Origin: a virus
Taxonomy: Duplodnaviria > Heunggongvirae > Uroviricota > Caudoviricetes
Length of the DNA stretch: 9,136 nucleotides
Reading direction: 5' to 3' (one strand)
Virus record (IMG/VR): IMGVR_UViG_2713896770_000016
Location: 1 to 9,136 of that record
Below the pieces are notes generated by a model, which saw only the letters and a list, made by a program, of their open reading frames with translations, made no database searches and was not told the origin of the DNA. A program made the position numbers and the translations under genes. How positions within the stretch are numbered: the stretch's first letter is position 1; each line of letters opens with the position of its first letter. This document shows positions 1 to 9,136 of the stretch, piece by piece.

Positions 1-2138
1 TCATCGGTCATAATGGCAGACTGCGCTTCACGTGATTGCTTCAGCCACCATTTAATGGTGTCACGATCAATGACTCCGCCAGCAGTTTCCAGATCGATAG
101 TCTTACTAAATTCCGGTCCCATATCTCCGGTTTGCGGATCGAAAAATATTGCACCTATTGAGATAATCGGGGCATCAGGATTTTTTCCCATGGTTTCAAG
201 GTCGATCATTAGATGGTCACACGTCCTGCTGGTGGATGTGATAACACGATGACCGTTCACCGTAATTAAGGGATCTGCCGTCTCGCCAGTTTCACTATCG
301 CTGGCGTGATCCTGAGCGCTGCCAGCATTCTCCTTGTGTGGATGTTCAGCGCCTTCCATTTTCTCCGAATCGTCTTCCTGAACTTCAACCTGGTTCTTGT
401 CATCGAATGTTTCCTGGTATGTTGCGTCGCCCATCACCGCACCACAATCAGGGCAGTTGCCACCGCCGGTCTGACCGCAGGCGGTGCAGACTTTTTCCAC
501 TTCCTGTTGCGCCACTGGTTCAGGCTGTTTCGTTTCTGGCTCGTTTTGTAACGCATTTGGGCTGTTTTGTTCCGCTTTCTGGTCGTTCTGTTCCGTTTCT
601 TGCTGGTTCTGGTTCACAGAATCGCGGGTTTCAATCCCCTTCACCCATTTCGGATCATTCGGGTCGCTAATCCCTGCAACAAATTCACCACGTGATGCGG
701 CGAGCAACTGATTGGCGTCAGGCTGGCTGATATTGGCTGCCTGCATAATTTTGTTTACTTCGTCAGCGGTAACTTTTACCGGTTCTGGCTGTGCGGTCGT
801 GTCAGATGCACCAGTATTTTGTTGTGAACCTGAGTATGTACTGTTTTTGCGGGCGAAATATTCTTCTTTCGTGATTTCAGTAGCCCCGGCAGCCAGCGCC
901 TTATCCAGACCAGAAAGTTTGTTTGCGCGACCGTATTTTTCGCCATCCTTGTCGGTGAAGAGGAAGTAGAACGGCCCCTCACGCTCTACAGATGGTTCGA
1001 CTTCCACTTTGCATTCGGTTTTTTCGTTGTCCGGAATTGCCGTTTCCACTGCATCAGTTTCTGGTACTGGCGACGAGAGAGTATCAGTTGCGCTCTGATT
1101 TGTTCCTTCATCTTCAAACACGCCCTTTGTAGTCAGGTATTCAGTAATGTATTTGTTCAGTGCCACAGGATCTTTGTGAATGTCGATCGGACGTTCACGG
1201 ACAAGGCCAAAAATAGTCTGGCGGTCGTAGCGAAGGGCATCAGGCTGTTTGCGCATCGATGCCGAGATACGCTTCCAGTCTTCGCGGTCGTTGTCGATAA
1301 CTTCATTTTTTGCCCAGCGATGGATGCTGCCGTCAATGTTTCCGGCATCCACATCACCAGGCCAGAGAGCGTAGGCCAGTTCGTCATCCAGTGTTTTCCA
1401 TGTCTGCTTATATTCGCGACGAATGACTGCAGTGACAGGGGGGATTTTTTCTGCTGAGTTTTCAGTGTGCTGTCGGTGGACTCTGGCGCGGGCGAGATCA
1501 ACAACAGACGTGTATTTTCCGGTTTCCTTGCGTTCACCTTCGCGACGTTTTTTCCAGATGCGCATTTCTGCCTGAATTTCGGGCCATTTGGCACCAGGCT
1601 TACATTTATGCTTAACCCACCCGATGGCATGCAGCTTAAGCTCCGGATACATGGCGTTAACTTCTGGCATTTTCATCAACGCTTCAACGATATGTCCGTC
1701 GAATGTTGCCATGTCTTCCTGCAACAATTCCTGCGCGCTAATCACCATATCAACGGTGATGTTTTCACATGTGTCGAACTTAACCATGACAGCGTTCTGT
1801 ACTTCAAGGGACAGTTTGTCAAAATTGACGTTCATCGGTTCGGATTCTGGTTCGACCGGAATAAAGGAAGCGGATTCCTCATCCCAGCGGTTTTCCTGCA
1901 TATATTCGGTATCCCAGGAGTCGATAGCAGGGCGGGGCATGCCGGGTTTATCCTCGCAGATAAGAAATTTATAAGCGCAGTCCTGAGCAGCCGGATATTG
2001 CTCCAGGAATTGCCAGGTAAATTTGGCACGGGCGCGGCGTTCGTCGCCAGCTTCAATGGCAGTGGCTACAGCAACTGCACCTTCTTCCTTTATTGCCTGT
2101 TCGTCCGGAATGGCGGCGCAAATAAAGACTTTACTCAT
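1..2138 (-). CDS. recE: RecE-like exodeoxyribonuclease VIII family protein, N-terminal ~712 codons; 3' end runs off the left edge of the window
   Basis: Minus-strand frame opens at ATG 2138-2136 (MSKVFICAAIPDE...) and stayed open in the stretches hand-checked (1-300, 1440-1500, 2100-2138). It is absent from the ORF track, consistent with having no in-window stop. The plus strand over the same span holds only short, mutually tiling shadow ORFs. GAGG lies about 10 nt upstream of the ATG. An internal segment ...LLAASRGEFVAGISDPNDPKWVKGIETRD... resembles what I recall of Rac RecE. No search was run. Confidence 0.7.
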   Translation of the reverse strand, partial: MSKVFICAAIPDEQAIKEEGAVAVATAIEAGDERRARAKFTWQFLEQYPAAQDCAYKFLICEDKPGMPRPAIDSWDTEYMQENRWDEESASFIPVEPESEPMNVNFDKLSLEVQNAVMVKFDTCENITVDMVISAQELLQEDMATFDGHIVEALMKMPEVNAMYPELKLHAIGWVKHKCKPGAKWPEIQAEMRIWKKRREGERKETGKYTSVVDLARARVHRQHTENSAEKIPPVTAVIRREYKQTWKTLDDELAYALWPGDVDAGNIDGSIHRWAKNEVIDNDREDWKRISASMRKQPDALRYDRQTIFGLVRERPIDIHKDPVALNKYITEYLTTKGVFEDEGTNQSATDTLSSPVPETDAVETAIPDNEKTECKVEVEPSVEREGPFYFLFTDKDGEKYGRANKLSGLDKALAAGATEITKEEYFARKNSTYSGSQQNTGASDTTAQPEPVKVTADEVNKIMQAANISQPDANQLLAASRGEFVAGISDPNDPKWVKGIETRDSVNQNQQETEQNDQKAEQNSPNALQNEPETKQPEPVAQQEVEKVCTACGQTGGGNCPDCGAVMGDATYQETFDDKNQVEVQEDDSEKMEGAEHPHKENAGSAQDHASDSETGETADPLITVNGHRVITSTSRTCDHLMIDLETMGKNPDAPIISIGAIFFDPQTGDMGPEFSKTIDLETAGGVIDRDTIKWWLKQSREAQSAIMTD

Positions 2139-2261
2139 TTTGTTTTAACCTCATGACAGATTTAAGGATGAACAAATCCCTGCCATTGCTGGCATATAAG
2201 AATCAAATCTGATGTATTCATTAAGCTGAATGTCGTATTGTGGCAGTTATTTTATTACTGC

Positions 2262-2483
2262 TCACCATGACTCTGCTTTTACAGGTAAACCATCACGACC
2301 AAGGAAGACTTTAATCATGGTTTCCTTAATACAGTGTTGTGTGGAAAAATCACGAATATAGAGCCGTTGTTTTTTAATGTTGTTTACCGAAGCAATATAT
2401 GTTCTTCCTTTATGAATAACATAATCACCGGGAGTCACGCACTGACGAGGAATCTCATCAGTTCCGAAGTGATGAGCAATCAT
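2262..2483 (-). CDS. kilR: KilR-like small protein (73 aa), putative cell-division inhibitor
   Basis: Track ORF 2262..2495 (77 aa). The internal ATG at 2483 is preferred because GGAG sits 6 nt upstream of it, whereas the 2495 ATG has no SD. The product [22 protein letters not shown]... is 73 aa, the length of Rac KilR, and lies immediately upstream of recE-like in the same orientation. The name rests on recalled similarity, not alignment. Confidence 0.5.
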
Positions 2484-2657
2484 AATTATCTCCATTTTTA
2501 CAAATGAACTTTGTTGATGCGGTGCCTGGTGCCTCCAGGTGACGTTAACCAGTTAACAATTAACGCCGGATACAGAGAACCCACCCATAACACTGTTTTT
2601 GGTTTTAACTGTTCCGCGTGCGCTCAGCCGCATTCACCGCATCACAAAACTCACTTT

Positions 2658-2715
2658 AAAAAGGGCGGCAGACCAGTCACGGAGTAAAACTGATACCGCC
2701 AAACGTCACCAGAAA
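2658..2715 (-). ncRNA. dicF: DicF-type sRNA (prophage-encoded, ftsZ-targeting family)
   Basis: Minus strand reads TTTCTGGTGACGTTTGGCGGTATCAGTTTTACTCCGTGACTGGTCTGCCGCCC followed by TTTTT. This matches the 53-nt E. coli DicF RNA as I recall it, apart from about 1 nt. It has a GC-rich 3' stem plus U-tail and occupies the same operon position as in Qin (after the ydfC-like gene, about 175 bp before the next gene). Confidence 0.7.
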
Positions 2716-3056
2716 ATTGATAACAGAGGGCGTTGCAGCGGGGTTGTCACTTAAGCGTATGGTCAACCTGACAACCCGGTGTCCTCAACGGGGGAAGGAA
2801 TAACCCCGCCATACTTACCGCCGCGCCATTTCGCGGATTGCCACAACCGGAAGCGCACGGTCGACGAAAATTTAACGACAGGCTATCTATGAACCAGCTA
2901 CCTCGCCGTGCGCTTTCGCGTTATGGTCTGACTTTTCAGGGAAATATCCTTTCAGTAAACTGTCAGTGCCGGATGCTCACCCGTGTCCGGCGCAAGCACT
3001 CCACCTCACCCGTGGAGAACTCCTTAATTACCAACCTTAGCTTCGTTGGTTAGCTA

Positions 3057-3275
3057 TTAACGCGGGTATGTAATCATTCTGGCAATGGTTAATGCCGCTG
3101 CTTTTTCCAGATTGGTGATATCCTGCTCCAGAGAGGACAGATTTTCAGCCTGCTTAGCCCTGACTTCATTAGCCCATTTCAGATCCTGCGCTGCATTAAT
3201 TTTCTGGTGCATCCACTCATAAAGTTCATCATTGGTATAGTCTGGCGCGATGATGACGGGTTCTCGTTTCTGCAT
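3057..3275 (-). CDS. YdfC-like small prophage protein (72 aa), function unknown
   Basis: Track ORF of 72 aa with GAGG 5 nt upstream of the ATG at 3275. Its size and position (third small gene after the repressor, before dicF) match ydfC of the Qin dicB operon. The sequence looks coiled-coil-like. Identity is inferred from context and length only. Confidence 0.5.
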   Translation of the reverse strand: MQKREPVIIAPDYTNDELYEWMHQKINAAQDLKWANEVRAKQAENLSSLEQDITNLEKAAALTIARMITYPR

Positions 3276-3304
3276 ACTGATTCCTCGCGGTGCTGTTTCG
3301 CTTA

Positions 3305-3433
3305 TCAGCCATTAGATTTTGCCGAACTGGAAAGCACCTGTTTAAATTCGTTGAAGCTGTGAGCTTCTTCGCCTTCGGCAAGGCCTTCGAAGTATTCTTC
3401 GTAAGCCTTTTCCATGATTGTGTCGAAATCCAT
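3305..3433 (-). CDS. YdfB/YdaG-like small prophage protein (42 aa)
   Basis: Hand-translated MDFDTIMEKAYEEYFEGLAEGEEAHSFNEFKQVLSSSAKSNG, with stop TGA at 3307-3305. The ATG at 3433 lies 1 nt after the stop of the upstream gene, suggesting translational coupling. The 42-aa acidic product matches the ydfB/ydaG family in size. The overlapping 69-aa track ORF 3229..3438 in another frame was rejected. Confidence 0.6.
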   Translation of the reverse strand: MDFDTIMEKAYEEYFEGLAEGEEAHSFNEFKQVLSSSAKSNG

Positions 3434-3434
3434 A

Positions 3435-3590
3435 TCACCCACCTGAATTTCTTTCCAGCCAGCGACGCGCTCCAGATTCGGTTTTAAACGTTTTGCTTTT
3501 GGTATACGTCATTGCGGTGAACGTACCGTACTGGTTGGGGAACACGCCACATACCAGAGATTCGCTGTTGCCAAGATCGATAGTATCCAT
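3435..3590 (-). CDS. YdfA/YdaF-like small prophage protein (51 aa)
   Basis: Part of track ORF 3435..3671. The internal ATG at 3590 has GAGG 5 nt upstream and gives MDTIDLGNSESLVCGVFPNQYGTFTAMTYTKSKTFKTESGARRWLERNSGG (51 aa, the size of YdfA/YdaF). A 78-aa version starting at 3671 is an alternative, also with a GAGG upstream. Confidence 0.6.
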   Translation of the reverse strand: MDTIDLGNSESLVCGVFPNQYGTFTAMTYTKSKTFKTESGARRWLERNSGG

Positions 3591-3775
3591 GCTGACCTCA
3601 TTTCCCCTTAACGCCGGGGTAGCGGAACAAAAACCTGCTGCATAGTTATTAAAGTTGAACCCTGCCGTCATGTTCTTACGCCTCGGGCTGGCTACTTAAC
3701 CCCTGACCACTGCCTGGTAACTCGAAGTATTGCCCTGCATTCTGTGGGGCGGGGTGGGTTGGTATGAAAAGAAGG

Positions 3776-3814
3776 ATACCCATAGGTATTTAAAAAGTAA
3801 ATACCCATGGGTAA
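3776..3814. promoter_or_regulatory. Operator pair downstream of the repressor gene (OL-like), probable control region of the leftward early operon
   Basis: Two 14-bp dyads: ATACC-CATA-GGTAT (3776-3789) and ATACC-CATG-GGTAA (3801-3814), centres 25 bp apart. The second contains the perfect 12-bp palindrome TACCCATGGGTA. They share the half-site with the operators at 4295-4347. Confidence 0.5.
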
Positions 3815-3855
3815 ATTTTTGCGGTGTCTTAACTGGTGACTAGTTGTTTGGTGAG

Positions 3856-4275
3856 CTATGATGCGTTTTGTGCTTTCTTTTTACGGATTTCTTCGTAGAT
3901 CATATTGTAATACTGTTTTTTCTCTTCAAGAGTTTTTAATAATTTATCCGCTTCACTTTCTGGCAGTTCGTCTAAGAGATCTAAAAAAATACGTTGTCGT
4001 GGCGTTAGAACCCTTGTTTCATAACTGGAGGCTGTGTTCGTTGATGATGAAACGATACCATCCATCCATCCCCGGGGTAACCCAAAGGACTCTTCGATAA
4101 TCTCCACCATATCATCAGCGATCCGTTTTTTTCCCTTTTTCCCCTCTGGGTACAACATTCTTGATACATAAGAAGGCTCGCGCCCGATCTTTCTGGCCAC
4201 GTTAACCGCTTTACCATCGCATTTCTCATCACGAATTTTGATGAGTTGCTGTCGTCTAAATTCATATTTGTCCAT
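3856..4275 (-). CDS. Prophage repressor, DicA/RacR-like HTH protein (139 aa)
   Basis: Track ORF. The N-terminal region has an HTH-like segment GKAVNVARKIGREPSYVSRML. The C-terminal LTPRQRIFLDLLDELPESEADKLL resembles the DicA C-terminus as recalled. It is divergent from a cro-like gene and flanked by palindromic operators. No SD precedes the ATG, so the mRNA may be leaderless. Confidence 0.8.
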   Translation of the reverse strand: MDKYEFRRQQLIKIRDEKCDGKAVNVARKIGREPSYVSRMLYPEGKKGKKRIADDMVEIIEESFGLPRGWMDGIVSSSTNTASSYETRVLTPRQRIFLDLLDELPESEADKLLKTLEEKKQYYNMIYEEIRKKKAQNAS

Positions 4276-4350
4276 AGGTAAATAATAGATGCGATTACCG
4301 CAAGGTAAACAACCTGTGGGTATTGACTTTTGTTTACCTGTGGGTATTCT
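4268..4350. promoter_or_regulatory. Divergent promoter/operator region (OR-like) between the repressor and cro-like genes
   Basis: Operators TTACC-GCAA-GGTAA (4295-4308), cAACC-TGTG-GGTAT (4310-4323) and TTACC-TGTG-GGTAT (4334-4347), plus a degenerate copy over the repressor start (4268-4281). Rightward promoter candidate: -35 TTGACT 4323-4328, 16-bp spacer, -10 TATTCT 4345-4350. Leftward candidate: -35 TTTACC (complement of 4304-4309), 16-bp spacer, -10 TATTAT (complement of 4282-4287), ending about 6 nt before the repressor ATG. Confidence 0.5.
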
Positions 4351-4375
4351 TTGCTGTGTTTACTAAGGAGTAGCT

Positions 4376-4657
4376 ATGGAAGAATTAAGAATATTTCTCA
4401 ATTCTCTTTCGTCAGATGAACAGCGTATGTTTGCATGCGAGTGTGGTACCAGCATCGGTTATCTAAGAAAGGCATTGAGTAAAGGTCAAGTGTTAGGGGC
4501 ATCGTTATGTGTCCTTATTGAGCGAGCCAGTAATGGTGAAGTTACACGTCAGCAACTAAGGCCTTTTGATTGGATGAATATTTGGCCCGAGCTGGAAGAT
4601 ACCAAAACGTTAACACAACCACTTTCTAGGAGCTTGATTCATGAAAATCAAGCATGA
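4376..4657 (+). CDS. Cro-like regulator, YdaS family (93 aa)
   Basis: Track ORF with AAGGAG 5 nt upstream of the ATG. HTH-like segment CGTSIGYLRKALSKGQ...ASLCVLIERASNGEVT. It is the first gene of the rightward operon, divergent from the repressor. Confidence 0.8.
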   Translation: MEELRIFLNSLSSDEQRMFACECGTSIGYLRKALSKGQVLGASLCVLIERASNGEVTRQQLRPFDWMNIWPELEDTKTLTQPLSRSLIHENQA

Positions 4658-5066
4658 ACACATCCGCATGGCGATGAATGCCTGGGCGCGTCCTGATGGC
4701 GAAAAAGTTCCAGCAGCTGGAATAACCCAGGCTTATTTTGAGTTGGGTATGACGTTCCCAGAACTGTATGACGACAGCCATCCGGAAGCCCTGGCTCGCA
4801 ATACCCAGAAAATTTTCCGCTGGGTAGAGAAAGACACCCCTGATGCTGTTGAAAAAATGCAGGCTCTGTTACCGGCGATCGAAAAGGCGATGCCGCCTTT
4901 GCTGGTGGCCCGTATGCGCAGCCACAGTTCTGAATATTACCGTGAGATCGTCGAACGGAGGGATCGGCTGGTGAAGGATGTCGATGATTTTGTTGCGTCA
5001 GCGGTTGTTTTGTATGACCAGATGAATCGCGGCGGCCCGGCAGGGAATGCTGTGGTGATGCACTAA
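4641..5066 (+). CDS. YdaT-family protein (141 aa), CII-like position
   Basis: Track ORF with AGGAG 8 nt upstream. It starts MKIKHEHI like Rac YdaT as recalled and is about the same length. It overlaps the preceding gene by 17 nt. Confidence 0.8.
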   Translation: MKIKHEHIRMAMNAWARPDGEKVPAAGITQAYFELGMTFPELYDDSHPEALARNTQKIFRWVEKDTPDAVEKMQALLPAIEKAMPPLLVARMRSHSSEYYREIVERRDRLVKDVDDFVASAVVLYDQMNRGGPAGNAVVMH

Positions 5067-5088
5067 AAGCACGGTGTTCGGGGGTTTT

Positions 5089-6051
5089 ATGAGCAGCAAG
5101 CTTCATGGTCTTGTCTGGGAAGGGTGCGCCTTCACCGGCATGATCTTATCCAGGGTGGCGGTTATGGCCCGTCTTGCAGACTACAGCAATGACGAGGGCG
5201 TGTCATGGCCTGCCATTGAAACTATCCGGCGTCAGATCGGTGCAAGAAGTGAATCCACAGTGAAATCGGCTATTGCAGAACTGGCGAAAGAGGGCTGGCT
5301 GACGAAGGAAGAGCGTAAGGTCGGTGGGCGTAATGTAAGCAATATCTATCGGCTTAATGTGGAAAAACTCGAAGCAGCTGCGGCGGCGGCGCGTGAGTCA
5401 TATAAACCGAAAAGAAAAATTAGCCCGGCAAAAAATGACCCGTTAACAGTTGACCCGTCAAATATTGACCCCTCAACGGTTGACCCGTCAAATTTTGATG
5501 GATCAACTGTTGATAAAAAACTGCCGATTAGGGGGGCGATGATTGACCCCGATCCGTCAGTATTAAAACCTGATCCGTCAGATAAAAGATCTTCTTGTCC
5601 GGACGCTTCGCAACCGGACCCGCAGACGGCTGAACAGGATTTTTTAACCCGACACCCTGACGCGGTTGTGTTCAGTGCGAAAAAACGCCAGTGGGGAAGT
5701 CAGGAAGATTTGGTGTGCGCACAGTGGATCTGGGGACGAATCGTGAGTCTTTACGAGCAGGCGGCCAGCTATGATGGCGAGATCACTAGACCGAAAGAAC
5801 CCAACTGGACAGCATGGGCCAATGACGTTCGCACAATGCGGATGCTGGATGGCAGAACTCACAGACAAATTTGTGAAATGTTTGGGCGTCTCCAGCGGGA
5901 TTCGTTCTGGGTAAAAAACATCATGAGTCCGGCAAAACTCCGGGAAAAATGGGATGAACTGGTTATCCGCCTGGGGCGTTCGCCTGCGCAGCGTTGCGTG
6001 AATCACATTTCTGAACCGGACACTGAAATACCGCCGGGATTCAGGGGGTGA
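5089..6051 (+). CDS. Phage replication initiation protein (O-like): N-terminal winged-helix DNA-binding domain, repeat linker, DnaT-like C-terminal region
   Basis: Track ORF 5074..6051, which starts at a GTG. I prefer the in-frame ATG at 5089, preceded by a G-run, though the start is uncertain by 5 codons. The N-terminus LSRVAVMARLADYSNDEGVSWPAIETIRRQIGARSESTVKSAIAELAKEGWL is typical of phage replication-protein HTH domains. It sits directly upstream of a DnaC-like gene and carries an iteron array inside the coding sequence. Confidence 0.85.
   Translation: MSSKLHGLVWEGCAFTGMILSRVAVMARLADYSNDEGVSWPAIETIRRQIGARSESTVKSAIAELAKEGWLTKEERKVGGRNVSNIYRLNVEKLEAAAAAARESYKPKRKISPAKNDPLTVDPSNIDPSTVDPSNFDGSTVDKKLPIRGAMIDPDPSVLKPDPSDKRSSCPDASQPDPQTAEQDFLTRHPDAVVFSAKKRQWGSQEDLVCAQWIWGRIVSLYEQAASYDGEITRPKEPNWTAWANDVRTMRMLDGRTHRQICEMFGRLQRDSFWVKNIMSPAKLREKWDELVIRLGRSPAQRCVNHISEPDTEIPPGFRG
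5435..5524 (+). repeat. Iteron array (about six tandem 15-bp repeats, TTGACCCGTCAAAT-like) inside the initiator gene; putative replication origin
   Basis: Direct repeats at about 5435, 5450, 5465, 5480, 5495 and 5510, each with an internal dyad TTGAC-cc-GTCAA, followed by an A-rich tract (5513-5520). Two further related copies (GATCCGTCAG) lie at 5551-5560 and 5572-5581. In the protein they encode a DPSxx pentapeptide-repeat linker. Confidence 0.6.
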
Positions 6052-6057
6052 CGTGTC

Positions 6058-6804
6058 ATGAAAAACATTGCGGCAGTTGGGGTTCTTGAACGTATTCGCA
6101 GACTTGCACCACAGGGGTCGGTTCCACCGTACCGGACGGTGGAGGAGTGGCGGGAATGGCAACTTGCTGAAGGACGAAAACGCAGCGAGGAGATTAACCG
6201 CCAGAATCGCCAGTTGCGGGTGGAAAAAATCCTGAATCGTTCGGGCATCCAGCCTCTGCACAGCAAATGCTCGTTTGCAAATTATCAGGTGCAGAACGAC
6301 GGGCAAAAATACGCGCTGAGCCAGGCCAAATCCATAGCTGACGAACTGATGACCGGGTGCACGAATTTTGTGTTCAGTGGTAAAACCGGCACCGGGAAAA
6401 ATCACCTTGCAGCGGCGATGGGCAACCGGCTGATGGTGAAGGGGCGCAGCGTGATTATCGTCACCGTGTCTGACGTCATGAGCGTGTTGCATGACAGCTA
6501 CGACAACGGCAAATCCGGGGAAAAATTTTTACAGGAGCTTTGCGGGGTTGATTTGCTGGTCCTGGATGAAATAGGCGTTCAGCGGGAGACGAAAAACGAG
6601 CAGGTGGTATTGCACCAGATAATTGATCGCCGGACAGCATCACTGTGCAGTGTCGGGATGTTAACAAACCTGAATCATGCCGCAATGAGTACGCTTCTTG
6701 GTGAGAGGATTATGGACCGCATGACCATGAACGGTGGTCGATGGGTGACGTTTAACTGGGATAGCTGGCGTCCAAATGTCAGCAATATGAGGGTTGTGAA
6801 GTAA
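6058..6804 (+). CDS. DnaC-like helicase loader (IstB-type AAA+ ATPase), YdaV-like (248 aa)
   Basis: Track ORF with AGGGGG about 9 nt upstream. Walker A motif FSGKTGTGKNHLAAA and Walker B motif LLVLDEIG. Same length as Rac YdaV as recalled. Confidence 0.9.
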   Translation: MKNIAAVGVLERIRRLAPQGSVPPYRTVEEWREWQLAEGRKRSEEINRQNRQLRVEKILNRSGIQPLHSKCSFANYQVQNDGQKYALSQAKSIADELMTGCTNFVFSGKTGTGKNHLAAAMGNRLMVKGRSVIIVTVSDVMSVLHDSYDNGKSGEKFLQELCGVDLLVLDEIGVQRETKNEQVVLHQIIDRRTASLCSVGMLTNLNHAAMSTLLGERIMDRMTMNGGRWVTFNWDSWRPNVSNMRVVK

Positions 6805-6825
6805 TTTTGTCCGGAGGAAATTTTA

Positions 6826-7596
6826 ATGGAAACCGTATCTGACGCACTGAAAGCACTGAAAAAAGCCTCTTCACATGTGGTGGCAGCTCGCCTTGGAATC
6901 AGTCGTGAAGAGGCTGTCAACGAGCTGTGGGAACTCAAAAGAAAAGGCGTCGTTGATAAAACTGGTCACACCTGGTTTCTGGCTGGCGAAGGTGAATCCC
7001 GGGTAACCGAAGAGCGGCCAGTAAAATCTGAAGCACAGGATATGCTGACCGGGGAGGTCGAACAAAAAGTTACCGCAGACATGATGATTGAGTTTATCGG
7101 TCAGGATGGGGCTAAAACGTGTGAGGAACTGGCGGGTAAGTTCGGTGTCAGTACTCGCAAGGTTGCTTCCACGCTGGCGGTGGTAACCGCAACGGGGCGG
7201 CTGGCACGCGTTAATCAGAACGGTAAATTTCGTTACTGCATGCCGGGCGATAATTTACCAGCAGAGCCGAAAGCCGCGCTGGTAACGGAAAGTGATGGTA
7301 AGGCCTTTCCTCAGCCAGCAGGTGCTGCGTTACCAGTCCGGGAAGCCGCAACACAGGAAGAAATTAAAACAGAAACTGTGGCGGACATTGTGCAGCCGTT
7401 GCCATCGTTTACCGAAACGCAAGCAGATGAGCTGATTTTTCCGTCCCTTCGCAGGGCAAACCTGGCGCTGCGCAGGGCGAAAAGTGATGTTCAGAAGTGG
7501 GAGCGAGTCTGCGCCGCGCTGCGGGAGCTGAACAAGCACCGGGATATTGTTCGACAGATTACTGATTCTTCCCGCCGTGTTGTATCGGAAAAGTGA
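6826..7596 (+). CDS. Hypothetical protein (256 aa) with two winged-helix-like modules
   Basis: Track ORF with GGAGG 8 nt upstream. Internally duplicated 50-60 aa segments (residues about 1-55 and 83-140) of the pattern hydrophobic-x-x-L-x-x-x-G-[IV]-S-x-x-x-[VA]. The C-terminal third is basic and helical. No family was recognised with certainty. Confidence 0.7.
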   Translation: METVSDALKALKKASSHVVAARLGISREEAVNELWELKRKGVVDKTGHTWFLAGEGESRVTEERPVKSEAQDMLTGEVEQKVTADMMIEFIGQDGAKTCEELAGKFGVSTRKVASTLAVVTATGRLARVNQNGKFRYCMPGDNLPAEPKAALVTESDGKAFPQPAGAALPVREAATQEEIKTETVADIVQPLPSFTETQADELIFPSLRRANLALRRAKSDVQKWERVCAALRELNKHRDIVRQITDSSRRVVSEK

Positions 7597-7611
7597 TTGC
7601 CGGAGGCGCTT

Positions 7612-8037
7612 ATGGCAAAAGTATTTACACAAGAAGAGCGGGAAAAAATTAAAGGGCAGGTTGTTGAACTTGTACGTCTGAGCGGTCGCGAGACGTTGCG
7701 GCAACTGGAAGCCAAGACAGGTGCGACAAGATATCTGATGAGTGTTCTCGCCAGAGAGCTGGTTGCCAGTGGCGATGTATACAACTCTGGTTACGGGTTA
7801 TTCCCGTCTGAACAGGCGCGTAAGGACTGGCAAAATGCTCGCAAAAAACTCTCAAGGGCAAAGGTGAAGAAACCTGCAGTGGTTGATCCGGACCTTATCT
7901 GGTCGTTACCAGACGGCGAAATACGCCGCTACGACAGGCGCCTGAATATAATCTGTCGCGAGTGCCGGAAGAGCGAAGCTATGCAGCGTGTACTGGCATT
8001 TTATCAAGGAAATGTTAGGTATTTTAGACGTTACTAG
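7612..8037 (+). CDS. Hypothetical protein (141 aa), N-terminal winged-helix-like module, C-terminal basic region
   Basis: Track ORF 7597..8037 begins at a TTG. I prefer the ATG at 7612, which has GGAGG 5 nt upstream. It starts 16 nt after the stop of the previous gene. The N-terminus resembles the modules of the preceding protein. Confidence 0.7.
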   Translation: MAKVFTQEEREKIKGQVVELVRLSGRETLRQLEAKTGATRYLMSVLARELVASGDVYNSGYGLFPSEQARKDWQNARKKLSRAKVKKPAVVDPDLIWSLPDGEIRRYDRRLNIICRECRKSEAMQRVLAFYQGNVRYFRRY

Positions 8038-8190
8038 ATTAAAGAGCATTAGTTCAGATGTGAATTGACATTTTCATGGCGCAGGGTAGAGCCAGCGTGG
8101 TTGTCCGCTTTGCGTCAAAACCAGATATTACCAGATTTAGACATATATTCCCGATAGCCCTGCTCTGATGCTACACTCTGTGCTATTTTC

Positions 8191-8877
8191 ATGACCCCAA
8201 TAAAAATATTTATGACTATTGCTGATTTCAAACGGCCTAAATTGGAGCTCCCAAACGGGGCAAACAAACTACTACTGCACTCTTGCTGTGCTCCATGTTC
8301 CGGTGAAGTGATGGAGGCGCTTCAGGCCTCGGGAATCGACTACACCATCTTTTTCTACAACCCGAACATTCATCCTCAGAAAGAGTATTTAATTCGTAAG
8401 GATGAAAATATTCGCTTTGCTGAACAACACGGCGTGCCGTTTATCGATGCTGATTACGACACCGACAACTGGTTTGAACGTGCCAAAGGAATGGAATGGG
8501 AGCCTGAGAGGGGGATCCGTTGTACCATGTGTTTTGACATGCGTTTTGAGCGGACAGCGTTGTACGCTGCTGAAAATGGTTTCAGTGTGATCAGCAGTTC
8601 ACTGGGCATTTCACGCTGGAAAAATATGCAGCAGGTTAACGAGTGTGGGCGGCGAGCTGTTGCGCATTATCCGGGTATGGTGTACTGGGATTATAACTGG
8701 CGCAAGCAGGGCGGCTCGTCCCGTATGATTGAAATCAGCAAGCGCGAAAAATTCTATCAGCAGGAATATTGTGGCTGTGTGTATTCTCTGCGCGATACCA
8801 ATCTACACCGCAAATCTCAGGGACGCCCTCTTATCAAAATTGGCCAACTCCACTACGGAAAAGAAGAGAAGGAGTGA
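8191..8877 (+). CDS. QueH-like (DUF208-type) putative Fe-S protein, possible epoxyqueuosine reductase homologue (228 aa)
   Basis: Track ORF. N-terminal [12 protein letters not shown] followed by FFYNPNIHP, and later RCTMC and EYCGCVYS cysteine motifs. I recognise this pattern as DUF208/QueH, not confirmed by search. It follows a 153-bp intergenic region with extended -10-like TGcTACACT (8169-8177) and TGcTATTTT (8181-8189). No SD precedes the ATG. Confidence 0.75.
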
Positions 8878-9136
8878 TTTTATGGATCACCTTTCTGATT
8901 GATTTCATATTGGCGAGGTGACGTGAGTTAAGTAGAATGGCTGCGGGTGCTTGAGGCTATCTGTCTCAGGCATGAACACTGAAAGGCAGATAGAGAAAAG
9001 CCCCAGTTAACATTTCGCGTCCTGCAAGACGCTTAACATTAATCTGAGGCCCAATCTATGTCTCACAAATGTAGGTTAGCCTCTTACGTGCCGAAAGGCA
9101 AGGGGAAGCAGGCTATTGTTAACACCAAGCTGTAAT

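Follow-up and report, generated by a model that had tools for sequence, protein, structure and literature searches.

The untranslated leader between ydfC and dicF

The stretch of DNA analysed here (the window) comprises 9,136 nucleotides (nt) of a Caudoviricetes virus (IMG/VR record IMGVR_UViG_2713896770_000016, positions 1 to 9,136). On its minus strand an operon runs from a ydfC-like gene, whose stop codon forms the 5' edge of a gap, through this gap to the small RNA (sRNA) DicF and then to a kil-like gene (Table 1). The gap is free of credible open reading frames (ORFs) and is the known untranslated ydfC-dicF leader in the early-left operon of a Qin-type prophage. What is new is a 116-nt pseudoknotted RNA domain within it, which is absent from annotation, from Rfam and from the literature searched; the gap itself was known before.

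The gap was already termed a 'long untranslated region', and DicF is excised from the polycistronic ydfABC-dicF-dicB transcript by RNase E, which makes its 5' end, while the 3' end arises by intrinsic termination or by RNase III (PMC5069750; PMC9438474). A preliminary description of this DNA, made from the letters and an ORF list, had suggested a DicF precursor leader. This is correct and already established (PMC5069750; PMC9438474): the Qin prophage of K-12 has the same 340-nt spacer, between the end of ydfC at 1649041 and the start of dicF at 1649382, with nothing annotated in it. A 701-nt query reaching from ydfC to dicF matched 4,341 of the 5,426 complete Escherichia coli genomes.

The absence of a credible ORF from positions 2716-3056, which the preliminary description reported for both strands, was confirmed. 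Six-frame lists give only ORFs of 21-31 amino acids on the minus strand, with GTG, TTG or ATG starts and unconvincing Shine-Dalgarno sequences, and on the plus strand one 71-amino-acid TTG ORF and one 37-amino-acid GTG ORF. None of these has a Pfam match, and across thousands of genomes RefSeq holds no feature in the gap. Since a 1-nt indel in a C-run separates the window from K-12 (alignment A1) and variants of the domain differ by indels of 1-8 nt in helix P3a (alignment A2), a coding function or conserved reading frame is excluded. The decayed sieB-like gene that had been considered is excluded as well, as tblastn with K-12 SieB found no match in 2716-3056 at E-values up to 10 and no ORF there matched a Pfam family.

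Table 1. Features of the ydfC-dicF-kil region in window coordinates (helices are given as paired arms; MFE, minimum free energy).
Feature	Position	Strand	Basis or remark
ydfC-like coding sequence, 72 amino acids	3057-3275	minus	ORF list; RefSeq 'protein YdfC' on identical locus
ORF-free untranslated spacer between ydfC and DicF, 342 nt	2715-3056	minus	six-frame ORF lists, Pfam, K-12 comparison
Hairpin ACCAAC/GTTGGT, just after the ydfC stop	3030-3050	minus	degraded in K-12 (alignment A3)
Twin hairpins, CUCCAC/GUGGAG (3017-2999) and GCCGGA/UCCGGC (2991-2968)	2968-3017	minus	both loops carry CGGGUGAG
Hairpin	2966-2928	minus	
Predicted 10-bp long-range helix, AAGCGCACGG (2915-2906) with CCGUGCGCUU (2860-2851)	2851-2915	minus	MFE; abuts helix P1
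Conserved structured RNA domain, 116 nt, four-way junction and pseudoknot	2732-2847	minus	alignments A2 and A5; covariance model R1
Helix P1 (closing), GUUGUGGC/GCUGCAAC	2847-2840 with 2739-2732	minus	
Helix P2, CCGCG/CGCGG	2836-2832 with 2825-2821	minus	the GC hairpin noted earlier
Helix P3, CGGU/ACCG	2820-2817 with 2780-2777	minus	encloses P3a
Helix P3a, variable hairpin	2808-2804 with 2793-2789	minus	
Helix P4, GGUUGUCA/UGACAACC	2776-2769 with 2749-2742	minus	the 9-bp repeat noted earlier
Pseudoknot, 6 bp, GUAUGG (P3 internal loop) with CCAUAC (P4 loop)	2814-2809 with 2762-2757	minus	
Single-stranded spacer between domain and DicF	2715-2731	minus	Rfam DicF start at 2714; precursor MFE
DicF sRNA	2663-2714	minus	Rfam RF00039, 74.2 bits, E 2.4e-15
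Untranslated conserved leader of kil-like gene, STnc100-like	2510-2647	minus	Rfam 37.7 bits, E 1.7e-6, sub-gathering; alignment A4
kil-like ORF, first gene past the DicF terminator	2262-2495	minus	ORF list; RefSeq 'kil ... Rac prophage Kil protein', identical locus

A conserved pseudoknotted RNA domain

Two hairpins of the gap exist exactly as they had been described, namely a perfect 9-bp inverted repeat (2741-2749 and 2769-2777, with 19 nt between the arms) and CCGCG-ccattt-CGCGG at 2821-2836. The hairpin ACCAAC/GTTGGT also exists, but had been placed 4 nt off, at 3034-3054; its arms lie at 3030-3035 and 3045-3050. Among 1000 dinucleotide shuffles of the region, 29 (2.9%) contained an inverted repeat of at least 9 bp, and the counts of 5-bp hairpins (18 seen, 12 expected) and 6-bp hairpins (7 seen, 3 expected) are at chance level. 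Because such repeats and hairpins arise by chance, they are weak evidence by themselves, and the real support comes from conservation and covariation.

The 9-bp repeat forms helix P4 and the GC hairpin helix P2 of a single, independently folding 116-nt domain in the promoter-distal third of the gap. The loop of P4, which takes part in the pseudoknot, has 19 nt and is nearly invariant. RNase III/E processing structures had been suggested for the gap and remain conjecture; its two best hairpins are part of this larger conserved domain, which is also present where DicF is absent. The minus strand is fixed by adjacent G-U pairs in P1 and by covariance model R1, which scores 156.6 bits on the minus strand of the window compared to 6.1 bits on the plus strand.

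In total, 104 distinct variants of full length were collected with nhmmer and by pattern scans of contigs from viruses and metagenomes. Alignment A5 (95 distinct variants) is model-based and, being fitted to the model, leans towards it. Alignment A2 (67 variants) was made with MAFFT, is blind to structure and serves as an independent check. In A2, 95.8% of the pair cells are paired, compared to 30-53% after sliding the partners, and 8 pairs show double changes where shuffles give 3.2 +/- 1.4. In A5, 96.7% of the pair cells are paired and double changes occur in 18 of 36 pairs (7.2 +/- 1.6 in shuffles, with none of 500 shuffles reaching 18); the compensated cells number 92, against 13.8 in shuffles. 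Covariation of the stems had been named in the preliminary description as the test that could refute them, and its outcome in both alignments favours the structure.

One pair of the pseudoknot changed from U-A to C-G twice, in the separate backgrounds of phage P1-type variants and of the Qin-type loci L334 and L383 (related loci are cited by our own numbers). The same change in P3 arose in P7-type variants and in L288, and in L328 helix P4 is wholly re-coded as GGAUCACCA/UGGUGAUCC. The P3a hairpin sequences are unrelated between variants, and P2 shows no covariation among them. A mutual-information scan for further tertiary pairs gave nothing new, its signal being lineage effects in the variable P3a, and the GGA in J3a/3 is not kept across the variants in A2. 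From these sequence comparisons, the domain is almost certainly a real, selected RNA structure. Two results temper this: the single-sequence folding energy of the domain is not exceptional (z = -0.66), and the family is narrow, being found in elements of Escherichia, Salmonella, Shigella and Klebsiella, with part of the covariation inherited and not independent.

In the window, no family of Rfam 15 falls on the domain at gathering or permissive thresholds (E up to 5-10), and five divergent copies (phage P1, a phage-plasmid, F1055, L306 and L328), scanned permissively, have no match over it either. The window yields no tRNA or tmRNA with ARAGORN, and no tRNA-clan family of Rfam matched the domain there or in the five divergent copies. 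The domain is also not DicF itself: the 52-nt model RF00039, which holds the ftsZ-complementary 5' part and the terminator, matches 2714-2663 only, outside the domain.

The promoter-proximal 200 nt of the gap (3056-2848) are a mosaic whose recombination breakpoints lie close to query positions 20, 40, 60 and 120, and the folding significance of the upstream half of the gap is marginal (z = -1.84). A piece of about 75 nt with the twin hairpins occurs without the domain in other phages, in a Sepvirinae phage (90% identity) upstream of a PAPS-reductase gene and in N-encoding Shiga toxin (Stx) phages; its loci are L260 2501-2573 and L259 about 2520-2600. It appears to be a portable motif in its own right, either an RNA or a site for protein binding. 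Nearer to the domain, in the loop of the predicted long-range helix, lies TAAATT (2874-2869), which is homologous to the -10 element of the promoter of the Rac sRNA KilS. Judging from this motif a weak internal promoter is possible, which would give a transcript of about 200 nt containing the domain and DicF.

Genomic contexts and the adjacent terminator

The domain is present in 4,315 of the 5,426 complete E. coli genomes (80%), including K-12 MG1655, with 8,964 copies in total and at most eight per genome, none of which is annotated. A scan of genome contigs with a 17-base pattern returned mostly chance matches in GC-rich genomes, the real matches being only in Escherichia. Partial BLAST matches showed that about 110 nt of the gap (about 2847-2735) recur where both ydfC and DicF are absent. 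Phage cdtI and an e14-like prophage carry the domain between yfdP and a repressor gene of the cI type. Phages P1 and P7 have it directly after the P1ban promoter, which C1 controls, and a phage-plasmid has it in front of a tRNA array. It also occurs in Salmonella phage F1055 and in a phage deposited as Actinobacillus phage. Rfam DicF has no match in the domain-bearing loci of phage P1, cdtI and CT01. The domain is a portable unit, shared by Qin/Rac-like lambdoids, cdtI/e14-like lambdoids, a Salmonella lambdoid and the P1/P7 plasmid prophages, and it is conserved across these unrelated phage types, whereas its flanks are not.

Every context has one copy per locus, located in untranslated RNA and in sense to a repressor-controlled early operon. 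Phage P1 carries the domain between P1ban and a terminator (8-bp hairpin and T6), upstream of the tRNA genes, tciABC and ban, and no further promoter is annotated between P1ban and these genes. In cdtI, the cI terminator is followed by a promoter with 11 of 12 consensus positions, the domain about 280 nt on, a terminator and the first gene. Depending on the context, the genes past the terminator are kil/dicB/recE, yfdPQR, or the tRNAs, tci and ban of phage P1. Since no gene common to all four contexts is visible in the record annotations, the domain would work with a host factor or with none. With three N proteins as queries (lambda and two Stx phages), tblastn gave no match at E <= 1e-3 in 252 domain-bearing loci and nothing significant in the window (all E >= 0.65), which is a weak test given the few queries, the limited flanks and the diversity of N proteins. 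The N-encoding Stx phages phiSTEC1589 and POCJ13 contain only a stub and a 3' remnant of the domain, respectively.

A hairpin with a U-run follows the domain within about 10-40 nt in all 100 variants with enough flank (98 found by scan and 2 by eye). The sequences of the spacer and the terminator hairpin differ between lineages, and DicF is one version: besides canonical DicF there are a short DicF variant, KilS-like seeds, a CCAUGUUGAUUACC type, a CAUGUGUAGUC type, the 13-nt spacer of cdtI and the UUCG hairpin of phage P1. In the window, DicF starts 17 nt after the domain, with its mature 5' end at the junction of AUCAA and UUUUC, and behind its terminator hairpin (2700-2664, -16.2 kcal/mol) comes a U-run at 2662-2658. 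The fold predicted for the precursor pairs the DicF seed UGGUGAC with an upstream GUUAUCA (2703-2725, minus strand) and places the RNase E junction in the loop. The seed may, on this model, be masked until processing.

Not all relatives have the domain. In K-12 Rac, helix P1 is reduced to the stub GGUUGU-AAAUA-ACGAC, and this stub serves as 5' hairpin of KilS, an annotated sRNA (PMC8175672). KilS (98 nt; L265 1906-2003, minus strand) lies upstream of kilR and occupies the position of DicF in Qin. Rac-SA53, an inducible phage, has the same domain-less arrangement and no N match. The existence of such Rac-type relatives shows that the domain is not indispensable. In F1055, L288, L306 and L317 the domain is followed by KilS-like seeds (AUUGCUGUGUGUAGUC), and DicF and KilS thus seem to be interchangeable cargo of a single cassette.

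At the margin of the family, the tRNA-cluster regions of P1-like elements (L004 2684-2793 and 3925-4034, L258 2596-2705, L007 3836-3969) contain weak full-length matches to the domain model (7.5-13 bits, E 0.05-2.7), which may be highly divergent relatives or noise. The most divergent copy, with P4 and P1 re-coded, is found on the metagenomic contig L328. It is directly preceded by a 125-nt tRNA-model match (39.6 bits) that may be an intron-containing or aberrant tRNA; the two features lie at 1867-1991 and 1512-1638 (minus strand).

The leader of the kil-like gene (2510-2647) comes after the DicF terminator, which transcription has to pass to reach it. It resembles STnc100 RNA (RF02076), and PGAP annotates part of it as a DicB N-terminal pseudogene. 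An STnc100-like element is also found upstream of tciA in phage P1 and a phage-plasmid (L007 3842-3961, L004 4230-4367); given these positions upstream of a kil-like ORF and of tciA, the element travels with cell-division-inhibitor genes. Elsewhere in the window we found the sok antitoxin RNA of a hok/sok-type locus (8945-9117, plus strand; RF01794, 115.6 bits), a prophage-borne epoxyqueuosine reductase QueH (8191-8877, plus strand; PF02677, 221.5 bits) and, between the repressor gene and a DUF1391 (ydfA-like) gene, a 16-bp near-perfect palindromic hairpin with a T-rich tail (3777-3813, minus strand) that may be an operator or a terminator. C4 antisense RNA and IsrK, both above the Rfam gathering threshold, adjoin each other in the rightward region of domain-bearing cdtI/e14-like prophages (L003 and L008, 540-728, minus strand).

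Possible roles of the domain

We tentatively propose that the domain is a cis-acting leader element which controls termination versus read-through, and this may well be its role, though it is far from assured. The domain would fold while the transcript is being made and before RNA polymerase arrives at the terminator, and once folded it would set the share of transcription that stops there, releasing a DicF-type sRNA, against the share that reads on into the downstream early genes. The likeliest mode would be antitermination by the RNA itself or together with host factors, as a functional analogue, with an unrelated fold, of the put RNA of phage HK022. Termination control is favoured because the domain has a fixed place ahead of the terminator that comes first in early operons, in two cases directly in the leader next to the promoter, and because the terminators that it precedes are unrelated and no phage gene is visibly shared. 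It is possible, though rather doubtful, that the domain represents a new class of RNA, either a second and structurally unrelated put-like processive antiterminator that reprograms RNA polymerase or a sensor of a host or defence signal that gates the adjacent terminator. If true, either would decide in Qin-type prophages between DicF-type sRNA and the kil, dicB and recombination genes, and would govern the tRNA-ban operon of phage P1.

The put elements (putL and putR) of the lambdoid phage HK022 are factor-independent processive antiterminator RNAs of about 70 nt that combine two stem-loops with a small triplex. They act in cis on the zinc-binding domain of the beta' subunit of RNA polymerase and suppress pausing and termination without phage proteins (PMC9378689). 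Like put, the domain is a structured cis RNA of temperate coliphages that is placed in an untranslated part of early operons under repressor control, upstream of intrinsic terminators to be passed and without a dedicated phage protein gene nearby. A place in the leader of an early operon upstream of a terminator, as put has it, was found in phage P1, in cdtI and in the window (a dicB-type operon). Unlike put, which is present in both the PL and PR operons, the domain occurs once per locus, and its 116 nt form a four-way junction and a pseudoknot; antitermination by the domain is hypothetical. Membership of the put family is excluded, as BLAST gave no similarity to HK022 putL (located by the numbering in PMC9378689) and model R1 had no match in the PL/PR region of HK022.

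The nut sites of lambda (boxA and boxB, with N) are likewise leader RNAs of early operons and govern the read-through of terminators. The domain differs from them in being much larger and in its lack of a detected N homologue (window and 252 loci), and N-encoding relatives are without the domain. A possible boxA-like UGCUCUC stands directly 5' of P1 in some lineages, the cdtI/F1055-type copies (L008 and L003, about 2985-2996; L256, about 2488-2496), where Qin-type copies carry GUGCGCUUCC. The hairpin CGC-GAAA-GCG at about 2918-2909 has a stem of only 3 bp, and no boxB-like hairpin (5-bp stem with a pentaloop) was seen. The record of phage P1 (NC_005856) contains a misc_feature 'dicF-like region' (68791-68892) that overlaps the 3' half of the domain copy and the terminator, so annotators had noticed the likeness to the E. 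coli dicF region. This is a note of similarity only, without structure or function, and the part that is shared is the upstream domain and not DicF.

Several points speak against termination control. The mechanism is read from position alone, and the constant adjacency of a terminator would be equally expected if the domain just needs a 3' end because it forms part of an sRNA. The domain has no similarity to put by sequence or model. In MFE folds of 12 types no competing helix between domain and terminator is conserved, and in most of them both structures coexist. No strong terminators beyond chance were predicted further downstream in the window, so processivity is not evidently required. The domain-less K-12 Rac and Rac-SA53 keep the same kind of terminator and a downstream kil.

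A second sRNA was among the earlier suggestions for the gap, and the domain could indeed be released as a stable RNA or form the 5' domain of a primary transcript of about 200 nt. In the latter case it would be a scaffold for sRNA biogenesis: a primary or precursor sRNA of about 200 nt would consist of leader, domain, seed and terminator, and the domain, as its extended 5' stem-loop, would stabilise the precursor and position RNase E to make DicF-type sRNAs with a defined 5' end. DicF and KilS share transcript and position with the domain, which stands exactly in place of the 5' stub hairpin of KilS, the counterpart of helix P1. The spacer and terminator resemble the 3' module of Hfq-type sRNAs, with DicF or KilS-like seeds in many variants, and RNase E does make the 5' end of DicF (PMC5069750; PMC9438474). 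The pairing of GUUAUCA with the DicF seed in the precursor fold and the KilS promoter homologue TAAATT just upstream of the domain fit as well. We nevertheless regard a scaffold as unlikely, since the domain is missing from KilS and from the sRNA-like units of N-encoding Stx phages, the cdtI-type spacer of only about 13 nt has no room for a seed, and a pseudoknotted four-way junction with invariant loops is much more elaborate than protection of a 5' end would require. Also, the conservation of the domain exceeds that of the sRNAs that follow it, and the domain differs from DicF in occurring with unrelated terminators and without any DicF, and in having no known base-pairing target. The alternative release of the domain as an autonomous stable RNA, of about 120-190 nt after termination and cuts by RNase E (or RNase P) and with its ends clamped by P1, seems improbable. 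Such an RNA would act in trans, for example as a decoy or ligand of a host protein early after induction. Helix P1 joins the 5' and 3' ends as in stable RNAs, and conservation of the loop nucleotides is high. The copies in phage P1 and cdtI come directly after a strong early promoter and have a terminator of their own. The domain shares a transcript with tRNA clusters in P1, P7 and a phage-plasmid, and no phage-encoded partner gene is visibly common to its contexts. However, the literature searched describes no such species, scans by ARAGORN (window) and Rfam (the domain in the window and in five variant loci) gave no tRNA, tmRNA, Y-RNA-like or 6S-like match, and no protein-binding motif is recognisable, the GGA in J3a/3 not being conserved.

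SAM-I riboswitches are built as a four-way junction with a pseudoknot. The domain resembles this type in its closing helix P1, its three inner helices, a loop-to-junction pseudoknot and a terminator tens of nt downstream, and its invariant unpaired bases and covarying fold are aptamer-like. A riboswitch-type attenuator, in which a small molecule or a host or defence signal binds an aptamer and switches the adjacent terminator, would also agree with the order of promoter, long leader, domain, terminator and first gene in cdtI and phage P1. Still, this is very unlikely: neither an Rfam riboswitch match nor a switching helix was seen, the mutually exclusive pairing with an antiterminator is missing from the 12 types in which domain and terminator mostly coexist, terminators and spacers are unrelated between lineages, the taxonomic range is very narrow and there is no tie to any metabolic gene set. 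Finally, there is hardly any chance that the gap is nothing special, that is, an ordinary spacer whose hairpins arose by chance, the remains of a gene (sieB-like or another) or a site for protein binding or recombination at the DNA level. The chance frequencies of 5-6-bp hairpins and of the 9-bp repeat, the unremarkable folding z-score and the mosaic structure of the region would suit such a reading. Against it stand the compensatory changes in the helices and the pseudoknot, the tolerance of G-U pairs on one strand only, the conservation across unrelated phage types of the domain but not its flanks, and the missing similarity to SieB or any ORF family; the covariation in A2 and A5 and the SieB search already largely refute it.

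DicF is among the oldest known bacterial sRNAs, and Qin, Rac and P1 are textbook elements. DicF represses ftsZ, and in enterohaemorrhagic E. coli it activates pchA and virulence. The finding belongs with structured leader RNAs that are coupled to terminators in the early operons of phages. If the domain controls the terminator, this would explain how an intrinsic terminator is read through in lambdoid prophages without N and in the ban operon of phage P1, and also the balance between DicF and the toxic DicB and Kil. It would then be only the second put-type RNA, with a different fold, and would inform how nascent RNA modifies RNA polymerase. Even if the domain is a scaffold or acts in trans, it is part of a modular cassette of conserved domain, exchangeable seed and terminator, through which temperate phages appear to diversify their sRNAs.

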